Both the position numbers and the translations under genes were made by a program. The notes under the pieces are model-generated. The model did no database searches, was not told where the DNA came from, and worked only from the letters and a program-made list of their open reading frames with translations. Below, piece after piece: positions 971-56,381 of a DNA stretch of 64,000 bases. The stretch is from a virus. The stretch spans positions 19,334-83,333 of the IMG/VR virus record IMGVR_UViG_3300008954_003554. One strand, given 5' to 3'. Positions within the stretch are counted from its first letter, which is position 1; every line of letters starts with the position of its first letter.

Positions 971-1390
971 ATGAAAATTTCCGAGAAAAATCTTAGAAAG
1001 CTGGTTTTATTGGAAATCCTAAAAGAACAGTATCAGCCCCGGGACGACGACCCCGAAGAAAGCCCTGAAAGCCCTGAAGGATCAGAAGAAAATGAATCCT
1101 ACCAGGTTAATAAAAGAGTTGAGAAGGCAATAAAAAAAGCTTCTACTTCCACCTTTAGGAATAGAAAATTTCGATCTCTTCTTAATAAGTTGCAGACCGT
1201 TACGGTTCCTCTTTACGGCAACAAGACGATAGATTTTAAGCTAGACCCGAAGCAGCCGACCAGCCTTCATTTTACTATTAAGAATATTGTAACAAGCCCA
1301 AAACTCCAAAATATCAACCTAACAGGAAAGGTAGATGATCTGATGAAACGTGATCCCAAGGTTTCATTGAGAATCTCTGGACGATTTTAG
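971..1390 (+). CDS. tag-family protein (MKISEKNLRKLV...LKEQYQPR)
   Basis: ATG 971 after GGGAGAGAG; N-terminal tag plus EQYQPR motif. Confidence 0.8.
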   Translation: MKISEKNLRKLVLLEILKEQYQPRDDDPEESPESPEGSEENESYQVNKRVEKAIKKASTSTFRNRKFRSLLNKLQTVTVPLYGNKTIDFKLDPKQPTSLHFTIKNIVTSPKLQNINLTGKVDDLMKRDPKVSLRISGRF

Positions 1391-9125: not shown

Positions 9126-9903
9126 TCCAGCACCCAGCATCTCGTGCGCTACTAATAATAAAATAATAGAGTAGCTTAATAGTTATATAGGAGCTGCAAG
9201 GGAGAGCACAAGACATGCGCATTACTCGTAAACAACTGAGAAGAATCGTACAAGAAGAGATCTTGAGAGAGCAACAGTACCAACCTAGACCACCCAGCCT
9301 CGGTCGCGCCGGAGATTCCCGACCCTTAGACCCCTCAGATGTGGAGGCAGGTGATGAGCTTCTTGACGTTCAGTTTAATATTCCAAACCGAGGGGGAAAT
9401 CCCAGGATGTTCACTGCCACTGCTAGCGGCGTCGATGCCCCGGGAGGTTTTGCCTATGTCTATGCAAAGCCAGTAAAGATACGCAGTGATCATCTCACTA
9501 AAAGCTACGACCCAGAAGAAGAGACCGGGGGACTTCGTCGGATAGTGCCAGCTGTAGGAGTGAGCGAGGACGATATTGAGATTGAAATAACTAGCTTTGA
9601 ATGTGTTGATCCCGCAGCAGGAACATACAGGATTAGCTGCGATTATGCATATGACGTCACTCTTGCCGGCCAAGATGCTGCGTCAGGTGATGGTACGACC
9701 ACCACCACATTGTCCTGGGCTGAGATGCAGGCTTTAGCCACAGCACTTAAGAGGGGTGAGCAGTTTGGAAAATATGAACCCCCTGCCCCGCACAATCAGC
9801 ATATAGGCATCAAGATATGCGTAACAGCTGGCACACCTAGATGGATATCCATCCGAGAGACCTGATCCAGGACCCAGCATCTCACCCGCTACTAATAATA
9901 AAA
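9122..9903 (+). repeat. 42-bp direct repeats (9122-9163, 9862-9903) flanking a tag-family gene
   Basis: CTGATCCAGsACCCAGCATCTCnnnCGCTACTAATAATAAAA, 38/42 identical. Confidence 0.85.
9215..9865 (+). CDS. tag-family protein (MRITRKQLRRIV...LREQQYQPR)
   Basis: Tag; ATAGTTATA at 9179; GGGAGA RBS. Confidence 0.8.
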   Translation: MRITRKQLRRIVQEEILREQQYQPRPPSLGRAGDSRPLDPSDVEAGDELLDVQFNIPNRGGNPRMFTATASGVDAPGGFAYVYAKPVKIRSDHLTKSYDPEEETGGLRRIVPAVGVSEDDIEIEITSFECVDPAAGTYRISCDYAYDVTLAGQDAASGDGTTTTTLSWAEMQALATALKRGEQFGKYEPPAPHNQHIGIKICVTAGTPRWISIRET

Positions 9904-10005
9904 GCTCTAAGAGTAGATCAAGGGCGTAAGGAACAGAGAGCCGCTAAACCTCTCAGAGAATCATCAATCACCCACACATACGTTACCACCCCTAAGAGAG
10001 CGCGC

Positions 10006-10034
10006 GTGTAATCAGGAGCTGACCGTGGTACAAT
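10006..10034 (+). promoter_or_regulatory. early-type promoter driving the SH3-cassette array
   Basis: GTGTAA-N17-TACAAT; AAGGAGG RBS. Confidence 0.75.
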
Positions 10035-10055
10035 AGATCTATAAGGAGGTTCTCA

Positions 10056-10238
10056 ATGAAAGCCGGTGATTTGGTGAGAATGAGAGGCACGCTTGAGTGG
10101 AATGGTCAGGTTGGGCTAATCACTAAGGTTCCTAGAACTCAGTGGGGCATGTGGGTTGTTATGCTTGCTTCCGGTGATGACACTTTTGTTGCGACCGGTC
10201 GTAAAGAGTGCATGGAGGTAATCAGTGAAAGTCGGTGA
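10056..10238 (+). CDS. KOW/SH3-like mini-protein, cassette 1
   Basis: MKAGDLV...G.VG.I...EVISESR. Confidence 0.8.
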   Translation: MKAGDLVRMRGTLEWNGQVGLITKVPRTQWGMWVVMLASGDDTFVATGRKECMEVISESR

Positions 10239-10449
10239 TTTGGTAATCAGGAAGATCCCTGAGCGTGGCACCAGCCGTAGGGCATCAGCCCTTAGCCAAC
10301 GCCGGGAGCTGGGCCATGGCCTTATTTTAACGAAGCAAATGGGGGGAAGTAATCCTGTCCACCCATGTGTTACAGTCTATTATCCGTTGACTGGTGAAAT
10401 GTATGATATCGCAGAGTCGCTCATGGAGGTAATCAGTGAAAGTCGGTGA
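10225..10449 (+). CDS. KOW/SH3-like mini-protein, cassette 2
   Basis: MKVGDLV...EVISESR. Confidence 0.8.
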   Translation: MKVGDLVIRKIPERGTSRRASALSQRRELGHGLILTKQMGGSNPVHPCVTVYYPLTGEMYDIAESLMEVISESR

Positions 10450-10639
10450 TCTGGTCGCACTTAGATTATGTCAACAAGCAGGTACGATTGGAATGATTAC
10501 AATGCTAACCAAGCCATCTCATCTTGCTAGGACTAAGCCTGAGCTCCGACTATACTGGGTTTTGACTGATTTGGGTAACCAATGCTTCACGGGTAGTCAG
10601 TTGATAAGACATGTCTGGATGGAAAATGAAACTCGGTGA
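10436..10639 (+). CDS. KOW/SH3-like mini-protein, cassette 3
   Basis: MKVGDLV...ENETR. Confidence 0.8.
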   Translation: MKVGDLVALRLCQQAGTIGMITMLTKPSHLARTKPELRLYWVLTDLGNQCFTGSQLIRHVWMENETR

Positions 10640-12870: not shown

Positions 12871-13926
12871 ATGGATATCAAGACCTTCGCATCCACCGTT
12901 CGCGCCCTTCCGGCCGACGTCTCCGTTCTTATTCGAGGCCCACACGGGATCGGTAAGTCCCACCTCGCCGAGAAAGCGGCTGAGGACATAGGGCTGCCCC
13001 TCATCGACCGGCGTCTCTCGCAGATGTCCGAAGGTGACCTGGTCGGGTTGCCGGAACTGGTGGACGGTGTCACCCGCTTCTGCCCTCCGGACTGGTACGC
13101 TCGGGCTTGCCGCGAACCGGTGGTTCTCCTCCTGGACGAAATCAACCGGGCGACCCCGGAGCTCCAGCAGGGAGCCTTCCAGATCGTTCTGGCCCGGGAG
13201 CTTAACGGCCACAAGCTGCACCCCGACACCCGCGTCATCGCGGCAGTCAATGCCTCGGCAGAATACCAGGTGAACGAGATGGATCCGGCTCTGCTGGACC
13301 GATTCTGGGTTGTGGACCTGGACCCCACCACCGATGATTGGATCGAGTGGGCATCTGGCCCTGGAGATATTGACTCGGTCATCGTGGACTTCATTCGCCA
13401 CAATCCGGCTCACCTTCGATTCAAGGGACAGGCGGAGCCGGATAAGATCTACCCCTCTCCTCGGTCCTACGACCGGTTGAACCACACCTTGCAGCACGCC
13501 TCGATGGCACCTTCCGAGGTGGCTGGAGACGTCAAGTCGAACGTTGGATTCTACGCCATCTCTCACGGCTTCCTCGGTACCGAGGCTGCTATCGCCTTCC
13601 GGGACTTCGTTGATAACTACGAACTCCAGGTATCTCCGGAGGACGTGCTGAATGACTACAAGAAGAACAAGAAGTCTCTTGAGGCGCTCACCAATGATCA
13701 GGGGAATGGTCTGATCGCCAAGGTGGTTGACCACTGCAAGCAGAACAGCTGGACGGTGGATCAGTGCTCCAACCTCTCCAAGTGGGCTAAGACCCTGCCT
13801 GGTGAGATGATGGTGAGTCTCTGGAACGGTGTGATGGAGACCAAGGAGGTCAAGAACATCACCAAGCTCCACAAGTTCCTGGGTCAGTCTGTTGTTGAAG
13901 CAGTTCAGCGGTCACGCAGTCTGTAG
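12871..13926 (+). CDS. MoxR-family / dynein-related AAA+ ATPase
   Basis: Walker A GPHGIGKS, Walker B LLLDEINRA, DPALLDRF, SPRS. Confidence 0.92.
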   Translation: MDIKTFASTVRALPADVSVLIRGPHGIGKSHLAEKAAEDIGLPLIDRRLSQMSEGDLVGLPELVDGVTRFCPPDWYARACREPVVLLLDEINRATPELQQGAFQIVLARELNGHKLHPDTRVIAAVNASAEYQVNEMDPALLDRFWVVDLDPTTDDWIEWASGPGDIDSVIVDFIRHNPAHLRFKGQAEPDKIYPSPRSYDRLNHTLQHASMAPSEVAGDVKSNVGFYAISHGFLGTEAAIAFRDFVDNYELQVSPEDVLNDYKKNKKSLEALTNDQGNGLIAKVVDHCKQNSWTVDQCSNLSKWAKTLPGEMMVSLWNGVMETKEVKNITKLHKFLGQSVVEAVQRSRSL

Positions 13927-18817: not shown

Positions 18818-19600
18818 ATGCCACGCAAATCTCACGATCTTCGTCTTAGTCAGGCTGTTGAGCTTCTTCAGGCCTATGAGGCAGCTGACCATCAAGGGAC
18901 CGAGGTCTCTTTCGTCAGGGACATGATTGCCCGCATGGGGCGTCGGAAGCAGATGTCTCCCAAGCAGAGGGGCTGGCTTGATTCACTCATCGAGCAGGGG
19001 GTTCCAGCTCCCAAGGGGGACTCAAAGCTTATTGATGAGATCGAGCGCCTGCTCAAAGTTCCCGGCGCTGATCACGTTCATCAGCCGCTGCGAGACTTTC
19101 TCTTCCGAGAAAAGAAGGGTTGGACACTTTCTCCCAAGCAGATCGCCTTTCGAGACAGGCTGATAGATGAAGCCAGAGTCATCGAGCGCGACGGTCCTTG
19201 GTTCCCATCGAGCGAGCAAGCAGAAAAGCTCAGAAGCTGTGCAGCTATGTCTCCGAGCCGCAGCGGGATGTACTGGTCCACGCACCCAGGCGAGGAGCGA
19301 GCGCTTAAGAAGGTTTTGTCGTGGCTAGAGGGCTGTGATAAGTTTGTAGACTCGTGGTCTGTAGACAAGGTGCTTCACAGCTTCAGGAGCGGATTGAAAG
19401 AGATGGAGGCACCTTACGCTTCCGCCGGTGATATCGTCTGGGGGAATCACGGAAAGTATTACGGAAAGATGGCTCTTGTTACCGGTGGTCCTGCCATCGC
19501 TGAGAACGGCCGTATCGGATACCCGGTCTTGATCGACGGGGTATCAACAACCTTCTCGAAAGGGATGATCACCAAGCGCCGACCGAAGGCAAGGGAGTAA
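18818..19600 (+). CDS. hypothetical protein with a duplicated SPKQ helical motif and a C-terminal SH3-like domain
   Basis: AAGGAGG RBS before ATG 18818; MSPKQ and LSPKQ repeats; SAGDIVW. Confidence 0.75.
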   Translation: MPRKSHDLRLSQAVELLQAYEAADHQGTEVSFVRDMIARMGRRKQMSPKQRGWLDSLIEQGVPAPKGDSKLIDEIERLLKVPGADHVHQPLRDFLFREKKGWTLSPKQIAFRDRLIDEARVIERDGPWFPSSEQAEKLRSCAAMSPSRSGMYWSTHPGEERALKKVLSWLEGCDKFVDSWSVDKVLHSFRSGLKEMEAPYASAGDIVWGNHGKYYGKMALVTGGPAIAENGRIGYPVLIDGVSTTFSKGMITKRRPKARE

Positions 19601-22867: not shown

Positions 22868-22952
22868 GACACTGGCTGGGACTTCCGGTTGTTCGGCACC
22901 GTAACGGTTCTGATGACTTGACCGGCACTCCCAGCCTCACCTGGCTGTCCCG

Positions 22953-22982
22953 ATGTACAATCGGGGCGGTCCTCTTTATAAT
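22953..22982 (+). promoter_or_regulatory. promoter for the tRNA
   Basis: ATGTAC-N18-TATAAT ending 8 nt before the tRNA. Confidence 0.6.
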
Positions 22983-22990
22983 GTTCACAT

Positions 22991-23067
22991 GCGCCCTTAG
23001 CTCAGTTGGATAGAGCATTGGCCTTCTAAGCCAAGGGTCGTAGGTTCGAATCCTACAGGGCGTACCA
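22991..23067 (+). tRNA. tRNA-Arg(UCU), CCA encoded
   Basis: 77 nt; acceptor GCGCCCT/AGGGCGT, D-arm AGCTCAGTTGGATAGAGC, anticodon arm TTGGC-CTTCTAA-GCCAA, GGTTCGAATCC, ACCA. Confidence 0.97.
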
Positions 23068-23077
23068 TTTAGTTCTC

Positions 23078-23106
23078 GTGTAAAACAAGCAGAGTTGAGG
23101 TATAAT
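23078..23106 (+). promoter_or_regulatory. early-type promoter upstream of the ORF-less structured region
   Basis: GTGTAA-N17-TATAAT. Confidence 0.8.
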
Positions 23107-23112
23107 AAAGAG

Positions 23113-23855
23113 GTAAGGAACAAGGAGCACTGTTCGCACCGGTTGCACGCCCTAGTGAGTAAGGATCTTCGTAAGGGGACCGCTCCAGGTGGTATCAAAG
23201 ATGCAATGTCGTCTGGAGTCGAAAGACCTAAGCTCCGCTTCCCTTACTGATCTTTAACATTCTAATCCCCCAGGTCCGAAAGGAGGAGCTCAAAGAGGCA
23301 CCGGACGGTCCAGCCAGTTATTGGTGTTCTGGGGGATTTATTTGAGGCCTTGGATTTAGCGGTCCGAGGAGCCGGTGGGAGTCGGCAGTCGTGGAACGAA
23401 GAGCTCACGGTGAGTGACATATTGGTAGTCACAAGAGGTCCGGGGTGCTGAGAGGTGTGTGCACCAACCGCACATCGCGCAACAACTAAACGGACTCCCA
23501 CCCCCTCTACCCTTTATGTGGGGGACACAGACCAGAGTGGTTGCCGATACTAGTTGTGGCAACTCGTGGTTGCGTAAGCGTGGTCAGGATTTCTGACTTT
23601 ACAGGCTGTGTCTAGATAGAGAAGTTGGGAACTCTATCACCATCTCCGCGGCTGGCGGTAAAATGGGAGCGAAGTCAGACACGTCCATCCAGTCCTACCC
23701 GGCACCCGCCTGGGGAAACTGACAGCGGGTATATTTTAATAGAGGAGATTTGGGAAGAGCGAGGGTCTCTTCCAAGGTTAACAAAAGGCGGGACGCTGCT
23801 GAAAGTGATGATAACAATCCCAGCTCGGGGGAACATTCCGGCCTTCACTAACCCT
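23113..23855 (+). ncRNA. candidate large structured ncRNA (~740 nt; class unassigned)
   Basis: Own promoter, no credible ORF, more than 12 nested helices, several GNRA tetraloops; boundaries approximate. Confidence 0.65.
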
Positions 23856-23876
23856 ACATTTAAGGAGACTCAGAGG

Positions 23877-24068
23877 ATGAGGTCAGGTGACATTGTTAGG
23901 AATCGAAACTCAGAGAGCGGAGAGATGGGTGTCTTCATGGGCATGACAGTGTTCAAGAACCAGACGAACAACGAGCTCTATGAGTGTGCCGAGGTTTACT
24001 GGCCGGAGAGAAGGAAGGTGGGGACGATTCAGACTAGCCTAGTGGAGGTGATCAGTGCAGGTCGGTGA
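23877..24068 (+). CDS. KOW/SH3-like mini-protein
   Basis: AAGGAG RBS; MRSGDIV...EVISAGR. Confidence 0.75.
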   Translation: MRSGDIVRNRNSESGEMGVFMGMTVFKNQTNNELYECAEVYWPERRKVGTIQTSLVEVISAGR

Positions 24069-41281: not shown

Positions 41282-41317
41282 TTATAATGTATTGGACAGG
41301 TGGAAATAAATATAAAC

Positions 41318-42493
41318 ATGTCGATATTCAAATCAAACCCAAGGCATGCAGATAGATCAGCATCAGACAGGTCTCGTCATAAGAAAAAGATAGCGCATGC
41401 CATAAGAGAGGGAATTCATCATATTGTATCTGATGAGTCAATTATTGGAAAAGATGGAAAGAAAAAAATCAAAATCCCAGTCAGGGGAATTAAAGAATAT
41501 AGGTTTGTATTTGGGGATAACAACAGAAAAAAAGTAGGTTCGGCACCGGGAAAGGATATCTCAAGGGGACAGCGGATAGGACAGTCTGATCAGCAGCAGC
41601 AAGGGTCAGGAAACAAACCGGGAAATGAAGAGGGTGAGGAGTATTACGAAGTAGAAATAACCCTAGAAGAGTTAAGTGAATATCTTTTTGATAGCCTTAA
41701 GCTTCCCGATATTGAAAAAAAGAAATTCAAAAGCATAGTTGGAGAAAAATATAAAAGATCAGGATACAGAAAAAAAGGTATTCGTCCCAGGCTGTCGAAG
41801 AAACAAACACTTATTAATAAAATAAAGCGTAGAAAAAAAGCCTATTTTGAAAATAGTGAAGATGAGAATGAAAGATTTCCATTCCACAAAGATGATTTAA
41901 AATATCATCATATTAAAACTAAACCAAAAGAAGTAACAAGCGCTGTTATATTTTTTATGATGGATGTTTCTGGATCCATGACGCAGACAAAAAAGTTCAT
42001 GGCACGATCTTTTTTCTTTCTCTTGTATCATTTCTTGAGAGCAAAATATAATAATGTTGAAATAGTTTTCATATCTCACACAACAGTTGCCAAAGAAGTT
42101 TCTGAAGATGAGTTCTTTACAAGAGGAGCTAGCGGGGGTACCAAAATATCTTCTGCTCTAGAGCTATGTCTTGACATTGTCAATAAGCGTTTTCATCCTT
42201 CCGCGTGGAATATATACACTTTTCACTGTTCAGACGGAGATAATTGGACCGATGATAATGAAAAGTGTGTTTCACTTTCTAGAACTATCAAATCACTTTC
42301 ACAACTTTACTGTTTTGTTGAAATAACACCTGAAATATTTGAAAATGATGGAAATACAACCTTTGGATTTTCCCAAGAAAGTAAAATATCCAACTCATAC
42401 ACACCGATGAAAGATTCTAAATTTAAAATAGTAAACCTGTTTCACAGTGATGACATATGGAAAGAATTTAAAAGAATATTTGGAGGAAGCTAG
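41318..42493 (+). CDS. yeaH: YeaH/YhbH (DUF444) vWA-like protein
   Basis: DRSRH, KIPVRGIKEYRF, MDVSGSM, FISH, GGT, WNIY.FHCSDGDNW. Confidence 0.92.
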   Translation: MSIFKSNPRHADRSASDRSRHKKKIAHAIREGIHHIVSDESIIGKDGKKKIKIPVRGIKEYRFVFGDNNRKKVGSAPGKDISRGQRIGQSDQQQQGSGNKPGNEEGEEYYEVEITLEELSEYLFDSLKLPDIEKKKFKSIVGEKYKRSGYRKKGIRPRLSKKQTLINKIKRRKKAYFENSEDENERFPFHKDDLKYHHIKTKPKEVTSAVIFFMMDVSGSMTQTKKFMARSFFFLLYHFLRAKYNNVEIVFISHTTVAKEVSEDEFFTRGASGGTKISSALELCLDIVNKRFHPSAWNIYTFHCSDGDNWTDDNEKCVSLSRTIKSLSQLYCFVEITPEIFENDGNTTFGFSQESKISNSYTPMKDSKFKIVNLFHSDDIWKEFKRIFGGS

Positions 42494-43810
42494 ATGTCTG
42501 ACTGGTCAATGAAAGATTTAGAAACCTGGGATGAGAAGATTATACAGATTGCCAAGGGATATAATTTAGATTGGTTTCCAATAAACTATGAAATATCCGA
42601 CTACTATGACATGATTGGTAGCATGGTATATCATGGGATGCCATCACACTACGGTCACTGGTCTTATGGAAAATCATTTGAAAGAACTCATTTAAACTAT
42701 AATTTTGGGATGACTGGGTTGCCATACGAGCTTATAATCAATTCGAATCCATCGATTGCGTATCTTATGAAAGAAAATCCTCTATACCTTCAGATATTGA
42801 TTATGGCTCACTGTATTGGACATTCTGATTTTTTTAAAAATAGTAGAATATTTTCACACACAAGGCCCGGGGACATTGTTACCAAGCTTAGAAGTGCAAA
42901 AAAGAGAATTCAAAAATATTCTGAAGATCCGGGTATTGGAATGGAAAAAGTAGAGAAGACTCTTGACTCTCTAAGGTCGATACAGTATCAAACGAGCAGA
43001 TTTAATCTTCCTCAGCTTTCACATGTAGAGAAAAAAAGAAGAATTGTAGAAAAAATAAATAAAACTAGTTCAAAAAAAGAAAGTGCAAAACTTAGAGAGA
43101 GTCTAGATAGGATTCCAGTTGAGCCAGAAACAGATCTTTTATGGACAATTCTTGAATTTGGAAACCACATACCCGAATGGAAAAAAGATATTATAAACAT
43201 AGTAAGAGAAGAATCTCTCTACTTTATACCCCAGATTAGAACAAAAATTTTAAATGAAGGGTGGGCCAGTTTTTGGCACTATAGAATATTAAATGATCTA
43301 AATCTGCCTCAAAAGTATCATATTCCATTTTTAAGAAGTCACAATCAAGTAATTAGACCCCATTTGGGTGGAATTAATCCGTATCATTTGGGATTTTATT
43401 TATTTGACAAGGTAGAGAAAAGAGACGGAATAGAGGAATGTTTTCTAATTAGAGAAATACATGATGATGCCTCTGCAATTAGGTTCCTATTGGAACAAGA
43501 AGATTGTGAAAATTTAAACCTATTCTCCTATTCAAAGAAAAAAAAGCTAACTTCAATAGACGATGTCTCTGATGACGTGGGGTGGAGAAACATTAAGAAT
43601 GATCTAGTAATGACAACAGGGGTTAACTCTATCCCTGTAATCGGAGTTGATGAAATTTTATCTGATGGTACTTTAATTTTATTACACGACCATGACGGAA
43701 GAGATTTAGAGTTAAATTATGCCGAAGAGGTTGTCGAGCATATTAGATATTTATGGGATAGAGATGTTAAGCTGTTTACGATTATCGAAGAAGAAACGTG
43801 GGAAATCTAA
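42494..43810 (+). CDS. spoVR: SpoVR/YcgB family protein
   Basis: GMPSHYGHWSYGK, YELIINSNPSIAYLM, TKILNEGWASFWH, NPYHLG. Confidence 0.95.
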   Translation: MSDWSMKDLETWDEKIIQIAKGYNLDWFPINYEISDYYDMIGSMVYHGMPSHYGHWSYGKSFERTHLNYNFGMTGLPYELIINSNPSIAYLMKENPLYLQILIMAHCIGHSDFFKNSRIFSHTRPGDIVTKLRSAKKRIQKYSEDPGIGMEKVEKTLDSLRSIQYQTSRFNLPQLSHVEKKRRIVEKINKTSSKKESAKLRESLDRIPVEPETDLLWTILEFGNHIPEWKKDIINIVREESLYFIPQIRTKILNEGWASFWHYRILNDLNLPQKYHIPFLRSHNQVIRPHLGGINPYHLGFYLFDKVEKRDGIEECFLIREIHDDASAIRFLLEQEDCENLNLFSYSKKKKLTSIDDVSDDVGWRNIKNDLVMTTGVNSIPVIGVDEILSDGTLILLHDHDGRDLELNYAEEVVEHIRYLWDRDVKLFTIIEEETWEI

Positions 43811-43864
43811 TGCAAAGGGTTTATATTTCCATAATTCAAAGTAAAATCTCATATAGAGGATCAG

Positions 43865-45796
43865 ATGCCTGATAAGAACAAATTTTTAAAAATCATAGAA
43901 GATCAAAGAAAAGGAAAAAAGAAAGAAAAGTTTTCTGGTAATTTCCTAGAGTATCTTAATATTATAAAGGAAAATCCTGAGACAACTCAGACGGCTCATC
44001 AGAGACTCTACAGGAAGATTGAAAGCTTTGGTGTGAGTGAGATAGATCGATCTGACCCTAGATTCCAGGGGGTTTTTTGCGGAGAAAAAGTTAAAACATA
44101 TGAATATTTCAAAGATGAATTTTTTGGAATGGAAAATGTAATTTCAAAAATAATGAGATTTCTTAGGTCTGCTGCACACAGAGGTGAAGAGAGCAGGCAG
44201 GTTCTTCTCCTTCTTGGCCCAGTTGGTGCAGGTAAATCAGCGCTGACAGAGCATGTAAAAAAATCGCTCGAAGGGGAGAGGTTTTATCATTTATCAGGAG
44301 ATCCCCAGAAAGGGGAGCCCCTCCAGTTGATCCCTAGAAACCTAAGGGAAAAATTTGAAGAAATTCTAGGTGTAAAAATAGAGGGAGATATCAGTCCCGT
44401 TGCCAGATTTAAGCTCCTCGAAGAGTTCAAGGGAAAATATGAGAATTTTCCTGTTGTAGAATCAAGCTTTTCCCAGAGAGCTCGTAGAGGGATAGCTGTT
44501 GTTCCTCCCATGGATCCAAATAGTCAGGACACCAGCGTTCTAATAGGGTCGGAAGATATATCTAAATTAGACTTATATCCAGAAGACGATCCCAGAACGC
44601 TATCTCTCAATGGAGCTTTTAACGTCGGAAATAGGGGAATCGTAGAGTTTGTTGAAATTTTTAAAAATGAAATAGAGTTTTTACATACCATTATTACGGC
44701 AACACAGGAAAAAAGAGTACCTAGCCCGGGAAAAAATGCTATGATTCACTTCGACGGTGTGATACTTTCTCACTGTAATGAAGCTGAGTGGAATAAGTTT
44801 CAAAGTGAACATACTAATGAGGCAATCTTAGATAGGATTGTTATGATTAGAGTTCCATACGTTCTTGAGCTAGATCAAGAAATTAAAATATATGAAAAGA
44901 TGATATCTCGATCAGACTTTTCGGCACACATTGCTCCTCATACCCTTAGAGTTGCCTCAATGTTTTCTGTTGCCTCTAGGCTCAGGGAGTCTCAAAAGTG
45001 CGATATTTTAACAAAAATGAAAATCTATAACGGAGAAGATGTTATAGAAAAGGGAAGAGTCAAAAGCATAGACATTACAGATCTAAGAGAGGAATCCCAC
45101 GATGAAGGAATGAGCGGAATATCTACAAGATTTATAATGAAATCCCTAGATAATGCCCTATCCGATTCAGAAAAAGGAATGGTTACACCTATTTCGGTAG
45201 TCGACGCCCTTGTCAAGCAAGTGAAAGAACAGGTAGTCTCAGAAGAAGAAAGAACAAGATTGCTAGAAATTCTACAAAAAACAATTAGAGAAGAGTATCT
45301 TAAAATCCTAGAAAATGAAATCGCAAAAGCGTTTGTCACCGCTTACGAAGAGCAGGCACAATCACTTTTTGATTCTTATCTCGATAATGCTGAAGCATAC
45401 ACTACTAGAAAAAATCTAAAAGATCGCGTTACAAAAGAAGAAAGAGATCCAGATGAGCATTTCATGAGAGCAATTGAAGAACAGATTGGAATATCGGGAT
45501 CTTCTCGCGATGGATTTAGATCAGATGTCACAGCATATATGTTTGCTAAAATGAGAAGAGGTGAAAAAGTAGAGTATAAAACTTATACCCCTCTCAAAGA
45601 AGCGATTGAATCTTATTTAATATCTTCAGTAAAAGATATAGCTAGAATTGTTACAAAGAGTAAATCAAGGGACGATGATCAAAAGAAGAAATATAGTGAA
45701 ATGATCCAGACCCTCATAGATGAATATGGTTACAATAAAGATTCTGCAGAGGAAATTTTAACTTATGCAGCTAACAATCTCTGGAGAGATTCATAA
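43865..45796 (+). CDS. prkA: PrkA/YeaG AAA+ serine protein kinase
   Basis: FFGME, LLGPVGAGKS, GNRGIVEFVE, NEAILDR, HIAPHTL, EGMSGISTRF. Confidence 0.95.
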   Translation: MPDKNKFLKIIEDQRKGKKKEKFSGNFLEYLNIIKENPETTQTAHQRLYRKIESFGVSEIDRSDPRFQGVFCGEKVKTYEYFKDEFFGMENVISKIMRFLRSAAHRGEESRQVLLLLGPVGAGKSALTEHVKKSLEGERFYHLSGDPQKGEPLQLIPRNLREKFEEILGVKIEGDISPVARFKLLEEFKGKYENFPVVESSFSQRARRGIAVVPPMDPNSQDTSVLIGSEDISKLDLYPEDDPRTLSLNGAFNVGNRGIVEFVEIFKNEIEFLHTIITATQEKRVPSPGKNAMIHFDGVILSHCNEAEWNKFQSEHTNEAILDRIVMIRVPYVLELDQEIKIYEKMISRSDFSAHIAPHTLRVASMFSVASRLRESQKCDILTKMKIYNGEDVIEKGRVKSIDITDLREESHDEGMSGISTRFIMKSLDNALSDSEKGMVTPISVVDALVKQVKEQVVSEEERTRLLEILQKTIREEYLKILENEIAKAFVTAYEEQAQSLFDSYLDNAEAYTTRKNLKDRVTKEERDPDEHFMRAIEEQIGISGSSRDGFRSDVTAYMFAKMRRGEKVEYKTYTPLKEAIESYLISSVKDIARIVTKSKSRDDDQKKKYSEMIQTLIDEYGYNKDSAEEILTYAANNLWRDS

Positions 45797-48418: not shown

Positions 48419-48787
48419 GGGCCCGAAACGGCTTCGACGGGGTAGGAGAGAAGAAGAGTGCAGGTGGTCGCACGAGACAGCGGACCTTAAGCGTGGTTTC
48501 AAAACTTTAATTGCCAATAACAATTATCACTTCGAATCTGTCCGCCTAGCGGCTTAATCGGTGGGGTTTCTTAAGACCTTATTACCCAATTTAAGATAAC
48601 AGGTAGAGATCCTGCGAAATAAAAAAATCAGAATGGTTCCCTGGAAACAGGTGGGGCGCAACAGGTTGATAAGCGCAGGGATGATCAACTATCTTTTCTA
48701 ATTTGTGATAGTAAATTAGATAAACCTGTGAATGACTTGACTTTGAAGCTATTGCGGACGCGGGTTCGACTCCCGCCGGGTCCACCA
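48419..48787 (+). ncRNA. ssrA: tmRNA; tag peptide ANNNYHFESVRLAA (48513-48557)
   Basis: Acceptor GGGCCCG/CGGGTCC with G3.U wobble, GGCTTCGAC, GGTTCGACTCCC T-arm, ACCA end; tag ORF ends LAA-stop. Confidence 0.95.
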
Positions 48788-55003: not shown

Positions 55004-55085
55004 TTTATATTTCTCTCTATGGGATTTTGCCATATAATAAAAATGTATCTTAATGAAAGGGGATGTACACAAAAGGAGGCAGACT

Positions 55086-56381
55086 ATGGGCAATAGAAAA
55101 AACTTTATCATAGATACTTCAGTATTATTATATGACAAAAATTCTATTCATTCTTTTAAAAATCACGACGTTGTTATTCCAATGGTAGTTCTTGATGAGC
55201 TAGATAGGTTTAAAGACAAGCAAGGTATTTTAGGTGAAAATGCTAGATATGTCAATAGATTTCTAGACGGATTAAGAGATCTTGGAAAATTACATGAAGG
55301 TGTTGCATTAAAAAATGGTCAAACAATAAAAGTCGAAAAGAATCACATGAATACAGTTCCAAACTCTCTGGATTTAAATTCAGGTGATAATCAAATAATC
55401 GGAACATGTCTATTTTTATCCGAGAGTGATAAGGATAAAAAAACTGTTGTAGTAACAAAAGATATAAACTTTAGAGTGAAATGTGACTCTCTAGACATAC
55501 TTTCTGAAGATTATTATAGGGATCGGATAGTTAATGACAGTGATGAAATTTACACAGGCCAATCGACGATAGACCTCAAGTGTAGTGATACATTTAATTC
55601 ATTTTTTGAAAATGGAGATCCCATATCACTTGTTGATATCGGTGTTGAACTTTTTCCTAACCAATATGTTGTTGGTAAGTTTGGATCTCAATCATTGCTA
55701 GGCGTTGTTAAGGATAGCAAGATACACCCACTTACGAAAAATCTGGACACTCTAATAAAAGTAAGTGCTAGAAACAAGGAACAAAAGTTTGCACTAGATT
55801 TACTCACTAGAGATGATATAGATATTGTAACACTCTCTGGGATAGCTGGGTCTGGAAAGACTTTTTTGGCTCTAATGGCTGCACTTTCTGGAATTAATTC
55901 AAAAAAATACGATAGAGTAATTTTTACCAGAAGTATTCAGCCTGTTGGAAAAGAGATAGGTTTCCTTCCCGGAGATATCAAAGACAAGATGGATCCTTGG
56001 ATATCACCGCTGGTTGATAACTTTAGACATGCTTTTCAAGATATCAGCTATTTTGAAGTAATGAGGGACAAAGGCAAGATAGAGATTGCTCCTATGGCTT
56101 TTATTAGAGGTAGAACATTTAATAGATCTATTATAATAGTAGATGAGGCTCAAAACGCATCTATTCATGAGTTAAAGACGATAATAACGAGAGTCGGAGA
56201 AGATTCAAAAATAATACTTTTAGGAGATGTAGAGCAAATAGATACACCCTACATAGACACTCTTTCAAACGGCTTGACAATTGTTGTTGAAAAATTTAAG
56301 AAAGAGAAAATTGCTGGTCACATTACTCTTCAAAAGGGAGAAAGATCAAAGTTGGCAACTTTGGCATCAAAGATAATTTAG
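55086..56381 (+). CDS. phoH: PIN-domain plus PhoH-like ATPase
   Basis: IDTSVLL, VLDELD, TKDINFRVK (PIN); GIAGSGKT, IGFLPG, RGRTF, DEAQN, GDVEQID. Confidence 0.93.
   Translation: MGNRKNFIIDTSVLLYDKNSIHSFKNHDVVIPMVVLDELDRFKDKQGILGENARYVNRFLDGLRDLGKLHEGVALKNGQTIKVEKNHMNTVPNSLDLNSGDNQIIGTCLFLSESDKDKKTVVVTKDINFRVKCDSLDILSEDYYRDRIVNDSDEIYTGQSTIDLKCSDTFNSFFENGDPISLVDIGVELFPNQYVVGKFGSQSLLGVVKDSKIHPLTKNLDTLIKVSARNKEQKFALDLLTRDDIDIVTLSGIAGSGKTFLALMAALSGINSKKYDRVIFTRSIQPVGKEIGFLPGDIKDKMDPWISPLVDNFRHAFQDISYFEVMRDKGKIEIAPMAFIRGRTFNRSIIIVDEAQNASIHELKTIITRVGEDSKIILLGDVEQIDTPYIDTLSNGLTIVVEKFKKEKIAGHITLQKGERSKLATLASKII

Follow-up and report, generated by a model that had tools for sequence, protein, structure and literature searches.

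A predicted array of small structured RNAs, including a widespread four-way-junction family, in the transfer RNA region of a marine T4-like giant phage

In this study we have analysed positions 23108-23866 of a 64,000-nucleotide (nt) stretch of viral DNA, here called the window, which covers positions 19,334 to 83,333 of the IMG/VR record IMGVR_UViG_3300008954_003554. Comparison with related loci suggests, with a probability that we put at roughly 0.7, that about six small non-coding RNA genes, modules A to F, each compact in its fold and independent of the others, form a promoter-driven array here, in the transfer RNA (tRNA) region of a giant T4-like phage of marine origin. Among these, module D is by comparative sequence evidence a new RNA family widespread in marine metagenomes, where new means relative to Rfam 15 and the GenBank phages, a catalogue of 10,006 candidate phage RNAs (PMC10690425) lying outside the comparison. 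On the same evidence, such phages carry module D as a strongly conserved gene in a single copy, with a four-way junction and a 3' hairpin. The original prediction, made from the sequence of the window alone, had described the region as a single RNA of about 740 nt with its own promoter, directly behind a tRNA. From the covariation and the conserved promoter we judge the structured non-coding RNA beside the tRNA to be genuine. Its unity is refuted by relatives in which the parts stand alone, change order or are separated by tRNA genes.

The relatives were reached through a homologue of the gene upstream of the region, which led to L002 (L-numbers denote related loci on other contigs, and G001-G004 related genomes). 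L002 holds a 310-nt stretch, free of open reading frames (ORFs), that matches only 23369-23643 of the window; it has no tRNA there, and the homologue of the upstream gene lies about 2 kilobases (kb) downstream of the stretch, unlike in the window. An invariant 18-mer from this match, GTGGTTGCGTAAGCGTGG, served as the seed of a homologue search and gave 18 true matches in viral contigs and more than 118 marine metagenome contigs. Bacterial and archaeal genomes gave 15 exact matches, 12 of them by chance in unrelated sequence and three in members on contigs binned into metagenome-assembled genomes (MAGs). The MAGs that contain these three contigs (L025, L029 and L036) are labelled Legionellales, Flavobacteriales and Dehalococcoidia, and the module D of L025 is identical to the copy in viral contig L014. 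With host labels so inconsistent with one another, these contigs are probably mis-binned phage DNA, and for that reason no host can be named.

When the whole region was compared with these loci by BLAST, its separate parts were found to have separate sets of relatives. Module D occurs alone in 86 loci, and the other orders are A>D, A>B>C>D, A>C>D, A>D>C, B>D and D>C, the full set of six being present in the window only. C precedes D in the window and follows it in L215, L251 and L296. In L223, where the order is tArg>D>tLeu>tAsn>tAsn>C>tLys, three tRNA genes split D from C. One fixed large fold is therefore ruled out by the reversed order of C and D and by the tRNAs that intervene. A contig from a public run also fuses 23310 straight to 23513, omitting module C. 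While the flanks of the modules diverge to 65-75% identity, compensatory substitutions keep the helices; such support is found for modules A, B, C and D, and in each of these the outermost helix joins the module's own 5' and 3' ends.

Module D is the most widely represented part of the array, and its predicted fold in the window consists of the following elements.

23515-23647, + strand: module D, the one copy in the window, matched by covariance model R1 at 133.6 bits
GACACAG at 23524 with CTGTGTC at 23606, + strand: P1, 8 base pairs (bp), enclosing the four-way junction
within P1, + strand: P2a, ACCA/UGGU, always pairable
within P1, + strand: P2, GTTGCC/GGCAAC hairpin, variable from 10 to about 120 nt, with several interchangeable insert types
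23571-23580, + strand: P2b, UGC-GUAA-GCG
within P1, + strand: P3, GTCAG/CTGAC, 4 bp, in at least four sequence types
GATAGAG at 23615 with CTCTATC at 23632, + strand: P4, 7 bp, outside P1, with the conserved loop AAGUUGGGAA (family form AAGYUGGGAA)

The family ranges from about 115 to 200 nt around a compact core of about 115 nt, with L014 and L043 among the shortest members. It is present in at least 124 fetched contigs, and R1 finds it at full length in 95 of 100 metagenome loci. Across 98 distinct sequences, 99.5% of the alignment cells at paired positions can pair and 18 of the 23 pairs are doubly changed; none of 500 shuffles reaches the observed values, and slid partners are only 25-55% paired. 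About 36 positions are nearly invariant, and the invariant junction strands are GUGGG, ACCAGAG, CGUGGUUGCGUAAGCGU and AAGYUGGGAA. A tentative pseudoknot of 2-3 bp may form between nt 1-3, immediately 5' of GUGGG, and the junction of P3 with P1, since in the antiparallel register these positions are 80% paired, with UA, CG, GU, AU and UG all seen at one position. A parallel-stranded register of this pseudoknot was rejected at 52% paired. P4 with its tail also recalls helix 45 and the 3' end of 16S ribosomal RNA, a likeness that was dropped because it holds for one subtype only. A loose pattern for the 3' half of module D brought up known members and, beyond these, only stretches without an R1 score. 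Neither the whole region nor two module D sequences had a BLAST match among 50,697 GenBank phage records.

The record from which the window comes is 83 kb long and 23% complete according to CheckV, and marine-labelled metagenome runs contain the window nearly whole. Four related records that share module D (G001-G004; 191-293 kb, two of them complete) were searched whole, and a T4-type major capsid protein of the Gp23 family is encoded in all four. Since these related records are of such size and encode this protein, the window is taken to come from a T4-type marine giant phage that has not been cultivated. Five records of giant T4-like phages were searched, and each has one copy of module D; of the five, three are at least 90% complete, and complete genomes of 293 kb and 191 kb are included. 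Its immediate surroundings vary. In L015 a site TTGACT-17-TATAAT lies just 5' of module D and a second promoter-like site just 3' of it. A run of U follows P4 in 52 of 110 loci, and in 26 of the 110 a ribosome-binding site (RBS) and a start codon follow P4 and the U-run. A tRNA gene lies within 600 nt of module D in 35 of 112 loci. In 10 loci a tRNA begins 11-21 nt past the end of P4, in several loci the tRNA follows with no terminator between, and in 11 loci a tRNA, which is tRNA-Arg(UCU) in 10 cases, abuts the 5' end at a distance of 1-7 nt. No constant class of downstream gene was found, as 43 downstream ORFs fall into clusters of three or fewer with unrelated products. In L044 and L171 the gene 30-35 nt 3' of module D resembles, by eye, the nucleotidyltransferase of CCA-adding enzyme or poly(A) polymerase (GGSIRD...DRDF). 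In L007 two group I introns (12982-13172 and 13592-13790) lie beside tRNA genes around module D, and the first appears to split the tRNA gene whose 3' end directly precedes the module.

The other five modules are placed as follows.

23111-23250, + strand: module A, a three-way-junction RNA; model R2 matches 23111-23241 at 58.1 bits
GGTAAGG at 23112 with CCTTAC at 23242, + strand: P0 of module A, pairing its purine-rich 5' end with its pyrimidine-rich tail
within module A, + strand: P1, GGAGC/GCTCC
23264-23338, + strand: module B, about 75 nt, with closing helix AATCCCCCAG/CTGGGGGATT and invariant core CCGAAAGGAGGWGCUCAAAGAGGC
23341-23512, + strand: module C, about 172 nt, with closing helix GAGG/CCTC
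within module C, + strand: hairpin CCTTGGA/TCCGAGG with loop UUUAGCGG
within module C, + strand: long-range helix GGTGGGAGTC/GACTCCCACC
23648-23737, + strand: module E, about 90 nt, ending in the hairpin ACCCGC at 23704 with GCGGGT at 23725, then AUAUUUU
23749-23866, + strand: module F, about 118 nt, with hairpin GGAAGAG/CTCTTCC, conserved GUUAACAAAAGGCGGGACGCUGC, long-range helix GUGA/UCAC and tail AACCCUACAUUU

Module A is usually the first element after the promoter. Its 18 sequences show compensatory change in 11 of 19 pairs; the first hairpin is variable, with an insert of about 70 nt in the window, the second is GAGTC-GAAA-GAC, and the junction strands ACUGYUCGC and YCGUCUGGA are conserved. 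Module B is known from 10 sequences, in which 6 of 20 pairs, located in the closing helix and the 3' hairpin, are compensatory. It carries its own promoter in L181 and L231, and a pattern made for it has no match in viral contigs. In module C (19 sequences, 17 of 31 pairs compensatory) two hairpins bear the loops AUUGGUG and CACCAAC, which are invariant and mutually complementary and on that ground could kiss. In L223 module C is flanked by tRNA-Asn and tRNA-Lys, with no other module next to it. A pattern search for module C found L010 again and one new member, L296. Module F has homologues in L190 and L206, in each case immediately 3' of module D, and there its long-range helix becomes GUGAC/GUCAC and AUUGCA/UGCAAU. 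L170 holds a homologue of module E in which the terminator-like hairpin (CUUGC/GCAAG) and a pseudoknot-like pairing (GGCAG/UUGCU) are both still complementary. The same locus carries, between modules C and D, an element of about 105 nt (1245-1352, minus strand) with a perfect tRNA T-arm, GGGGUUCGAAUCCCUG; ARAGORN calls no tRNA there, a weak mascRNA-like match is seen, and the element may be a degenerate or unusual tRNA.

These comparisons also bear on the helices from which one large fold had been drawn. Each of the 13 pairs of arms in the original prediction is present in the sequence exactly in place, and 10 of them are backed by homologues: 23264/23329, 23348/23362, 23374/23493, 23414/23428, 23524/23606, 23540/23558, 23583/23593 and 23615/23632, together with 23704/23725, backed by a single homologue, and 23753/23767, backed weakly. 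The other three are unsupported. The CCTTAC of helix 23171/23241 pairs instead with GGTAAGG at 23112, each arm of 23183/23213 sits in a local hairpin, and 23504/23740, the sole helix proposed between modules, would span modules that are found apart in other phages. Because these three fail the comparison with homologues, nesting into a single multibranch RNA is not borne out, and the region appears instead to consist of separately folding modules.

Transcription of the array is predicted to begin behind the tRNA, and the signals and genes that frame the region are these.

22954-22982, + strand: promoter-like site TGTACA-17-TATAAT, 8 nt 5' of the tRNA, a consensus match only (10 of 12 in the consensus scan)
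22991-23067, + strand: tRNA-Arg(TCT), by Rfam (tRNA, 74.1 bits) and ARAGORN
23078-23106, + strand: array promoter, with -35-like GTGTAA at 23078-23083 (3 of 6) and a perfect -10 TATAAT at 23101-23106
23251-23263, + strand: AU-rich linker GAUCUUUAACAUUCUA after a pyrimidine-rich tail, of a CUUU..A..AUUU type also seen in relatives
23877-24068, + strand: first protein gene 3' of the array, 63 amino acids (aa), with RBS AAGGAG at 23862-23867 and ATG at 23877

The tRNA thus lies directly 5' of the region, as had been described. The promoter proposed there has a weak -35 and is not called by a consensus scan, while its -10 is perfect and (c)GTGTAA-~17 nt-(TG)GTATAAT is kept in position and sequence 5' of module A in about 17 related loci. 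Because of this conservation in place we accept the promoter as real on comparative grounds. Pyrimidine-rich tails and AU-rich CUUU..A..AUUU linkers separate the modules in relatives and precede modules C and D, and we infer that the AU-rich linker is a processing site. L002 has three copies of an extended -10 promoter, (G)CTGTGGTATAATG, within 1 kb (1341-1360, 1620-1634 and 2245-2260), and each copy precedes one short transcription unit. The description of the region as ORF-less also holds, in that there is no credible ORF from 23108 to the ATG at 23877, with the caveat that the frame of the downstream gene is open back to 23625. The 63-aa product of that gene (P0002) has no relatives among viral contigs.

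Comparison with catalogued RNAs gave no family for the region. A cmscan search of 22900-24000 against Rfam 15, the check that the original prediction had named, was run both at the gathering threshold and at E<=10 and matched the region itself to nothing beyond chance level, so that it is uncatalogued there. Overall, Rfam found the tRNA, the transfer-messenger RNA (tmRNA) and chance-level sR21, EFASI, mir-1238 and, on the opposite strand of the tRNA, Plastid-ycf2. No RNase P, intron, riboswitch or ribozyme model gave an accepted match in the region at E<=10. Hammerhead, HDV-like, twister, twister-sister, pistol and hatchet ribozymes were absent at E<=10 in the window and at the gathering threshold in 12 related loci.

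The closest analogue, by context rather than by family, would be RNAC (species 1) and RNAD (species 2) of phage T4, small stable RNAs of the tRNA cluster whose role is unknown (PMC3014915, PMC9697503). The T4 layout is tRNA-Arg(UCU) > rnaD > rnaC, and in both cases a T4-type phage has small structured RNAs in its tRNA region, immediately 3' of tRNA-Arg(UCU). However, neither R1 (module D) nor R2 (module A) has a match in the T4 tRNA region (L153) at E<=1, the tRNA-like 3' end that RNAC has by eye is absent from the modules, and T4 has two such RNAs where here there are six modules shuffled among phages. A likeness of T4 rnaD to module A, seen by eye in GUCGUC..GGUUCC, was dropped when R2 gave it no score. 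Runs of adjacent, varied RNA motifs have likewise been described in T4-like phages, as in the marine/estuarine phage S-CREM1, where several structured motifs stand side by side within about 800 nt (9745-10567; Table 4 of PMC9964418). The cyanophage motifs of such runs, wcaG (RF01761), manA (RF01745) and abiF (RF03085), have no match here. They are viewed as regulators in cis, whereas no particular gene is constantly found downstream of module D.

The Rfam family that scores best on module E is the ZMP/ZTP riboswitch (RF01750, pfl motif), but its cut-off of 39 bits is far from reached, with 17.9 in the window and 12.8 in L170. Module E has the motifs CUGGCG, GGGAGCG and CCGCCUGGG, and two alternative partners are open to its 3' strand, GGCGG or the other arm of the terminator-like hairpin; GGCGG/CCGCC of the window becomes GGCAG/UUGCU in L170, still pairable in this single homologue. 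Against this, the P2 hairpin is cut to a few bases, non-standard pairs make up 4 of the 10 in P1, the CUGGG core is altered in L170, and what follows module E is module F and the 63-aa gene (window) or a tRNA (L170) rather than a purine or folate gene. The resemblance is suggestive, no more. The YrlA-type Y RNAs (RF02553) are likewise modular phage RNAs near tRNAs, but YrlA has no match on the modules, and the one weak match, which is in L206, overlaps with a tRNA. For the modules we consider a Ro60/Y-RNA system unlikely, because no gene for a Ro60/TROVE protein or RtcB was found among the phages' own genes in five phage records, in a search whose controls respond.

Several other explanations of the region have to be weighed against an array of small RNAs. 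GOLLD and ROOL are phage-associated RNAs that lie beside tRNA genes, are rich in GNRA loops and have variable domains. A single modular RNA of this type, about 750 nt long and with the six modules as domains whose content varies between phages, would fit the phage setting, the GNRA loops, the contiguity of the modules in the window and the presence of one promoter with no strong terminator before module E. We nevertheless consider it very unlikely. The membership in this class that had been proposed finds no match to GOLLD (RF01998) or ROOL (RF03087) even at E<=10. The parts are separable and permuted, with D solitary in most loci and set between two promoter-like sites in L015, and modules A-D are each closed on themselves while the helix that would bridge modules is unconserved. 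That part of the region encodes small proteins, either in the frame from 23625 or as ORFs of 51 and 79 aa, is hardly credible. The frame of the 63-aa gene is indeed stop-free over 23625-24068, leaving 84 codons open before the ATG across modules E and F, an opening with a chance of about 2% in random sequence, and the homologous parts of L170 and L190 are likewise open in one frame. However, the sole upstream start in the window, a TTG at 23625, falls within the P4 loop of module D, and L190 and L206 have no ATG, GTG or TTG beside the start of the conserved block. The homologues end in a tRNA (L170, L206) or a promoter (L190), and double changes preserve helices. Indel lengths are not multiples of three, and a hand tally of the three-sequence alignment of module F gives substitutions of 7/5/7 by codon position, with no excess at the third. 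We therefore judge the open frame 23625-23877 to be non-coding. It is also highly improbable that the modules have no function of their own and represent selfish DNA or sequence in decay, for instance mobile mini-elements, or tRNAs or introns reduced to remnants in a recombination hotspot. The shuffling of modules between phages, the group I introns in the tRNA regions of relatives and the degenerate tRNA-like element of L170 would suit such an origin, but compensatory substitutions keep the helices while flanks diverge, each genome has exactly one module D, unlike mobile repeats in many copies, and no terminal repeats or target duplications were seen.

A further alternative is that module D, and perhaps other modules, is a new self-cleaving ribozyme or a ligand aptamer that processes or gates a tRNA or small-RNA transcript. 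Conservation concentrated in junction strands with swappable peripheral stems is found in ribozymes and riboswitches. The possible pseudoknot, the loci where module D begins within a few nucleotides of a tRNA 3' end, those where P4 and a U-run precede an RBS and start codon, and the weak ZTP-like signal of module E, with both of its mutually exclusive pairings kept, all point in this direction. We regard it as unlikely, since no known ribozyme or riboswitch family is matched, the genes downstream of module D share no family, a tRNA follows directly without a terminator in several loci, no alternative pairing was found between the aptamer part and P4, and the ZTP scores are far under the cut-off with the P2 hairpin missing. 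In a broader form, in which module D would be a new catalytic or ligand-binding RNA class of marine T4-like giant phages that acts on a tRNA or small-RNA precursor or on a host translation component, the idea is still rather unlikely. If it were true, the locus would amount to an 'RNA toolkit' of the phage, with several new functional classes whose maturation would fall to the tRNA-processing machinery.

We favour an array of small RNA genes, and we propose that it would work as follows. The array would be transcribed from the promoter at 23078-23106, with possible read-through from the promoter of the tRNA, and the polycistronic precursor would be cut at the AU-rich linkers into separate stable RNAs. 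In relatives, RNase P and RNase Z would cut at the flanking tRNAs, as T4 makes RNAC and RNAD from the tRNA-Arg transcript. The released small RNAs may then act in trans, and module D may serve as a scaffold or decoy that specifically binds a conserved protein or RNA involved in translation or tRNA metabolism. Our best guess puts such binding first and catalysis or ligand sensing second, because module D combines invariant junction strands and exchangeable peripheral hairpins with the lack of a constant neighbouring gene.

Several points weigh against this interpretation. The function proposed for module D is a guess, and the separate, stable, processed RNAs are themselves predicted, both ends and stability being deduced from sequence. 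Nor need every module be a free-standing RNA, since module A also lies between ORFs: it precedes an ORF in L004, and in the complete genome G001 it is found between two ORFs, 36 kb from module D. The module D alignment (A3) was fitted to the model's own structure. The patterns used in the search for members fix about 20 of its conserved bases, so that part of the invariance is ascertainment; nine members found by the 5' anchor alone retain the conserved block with at most one change. Sampling is thin for module E, with L170 as its sole homologue, and for module F, with three sequences in all and an uncompensated 5' hairpin. Two RNA runs, searched as assembled contigs, gave tRNA-like contigs and one 151-nt contig of depth 2 over 23568-23643; this comes from an oligo-dT run in which DNA carry-over is possible, and it shows nothing either way. 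Finally, the region taken as a single sequence folds no better than shuffled controls (minimum free energy z-score +0.2), an outcome that had been named beforehand as one that would speak against a structured RNA. Stems of 6-7 bp are at shuffle level; 8 stems of 8 bp are observed where 3.8 +/- 2.3 are expected, and 2 of 10 bp where 0.1 is expected, a count reached by 4 of 200 shuffles. Because this outcome coexists with strong covariation, the comparison with shuffled folding was a poor test.

Elsewhere in the window, the phage encodes a tmRNA (48419-48787, 109 bits) with the tag peptide ANNNYHFESVRLAA. It also carries a three-gene set (41300-45796) of DUF444/YeaH (41300-42493), SpoVR (42494-43810) and the kinase PrkA/YeaG (43865-45796), whose closest phage relatives, at about 33% identity, are in Thermus phages and huge uncultured phages. 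A fusion protein with PIN_4 and PhoH domains is encoded at 55053-56381.

In summary, the comparisons suggest that the repertoire of RNAs of the RNAC and RNAD sort is richer in marine relatives of T4. With more than 100 natural variants, strong covariation, a core of about 115 nt and one copy per genome, module D would be well suited to probing the role of such RNAs. At least four new families, modules A to D, would be available for annotation of the Rfam kind. The findings also advise caution, since what looks like a large ornate RNA next to phage tRNAs may in other cases, too, be an array of small RNAs.

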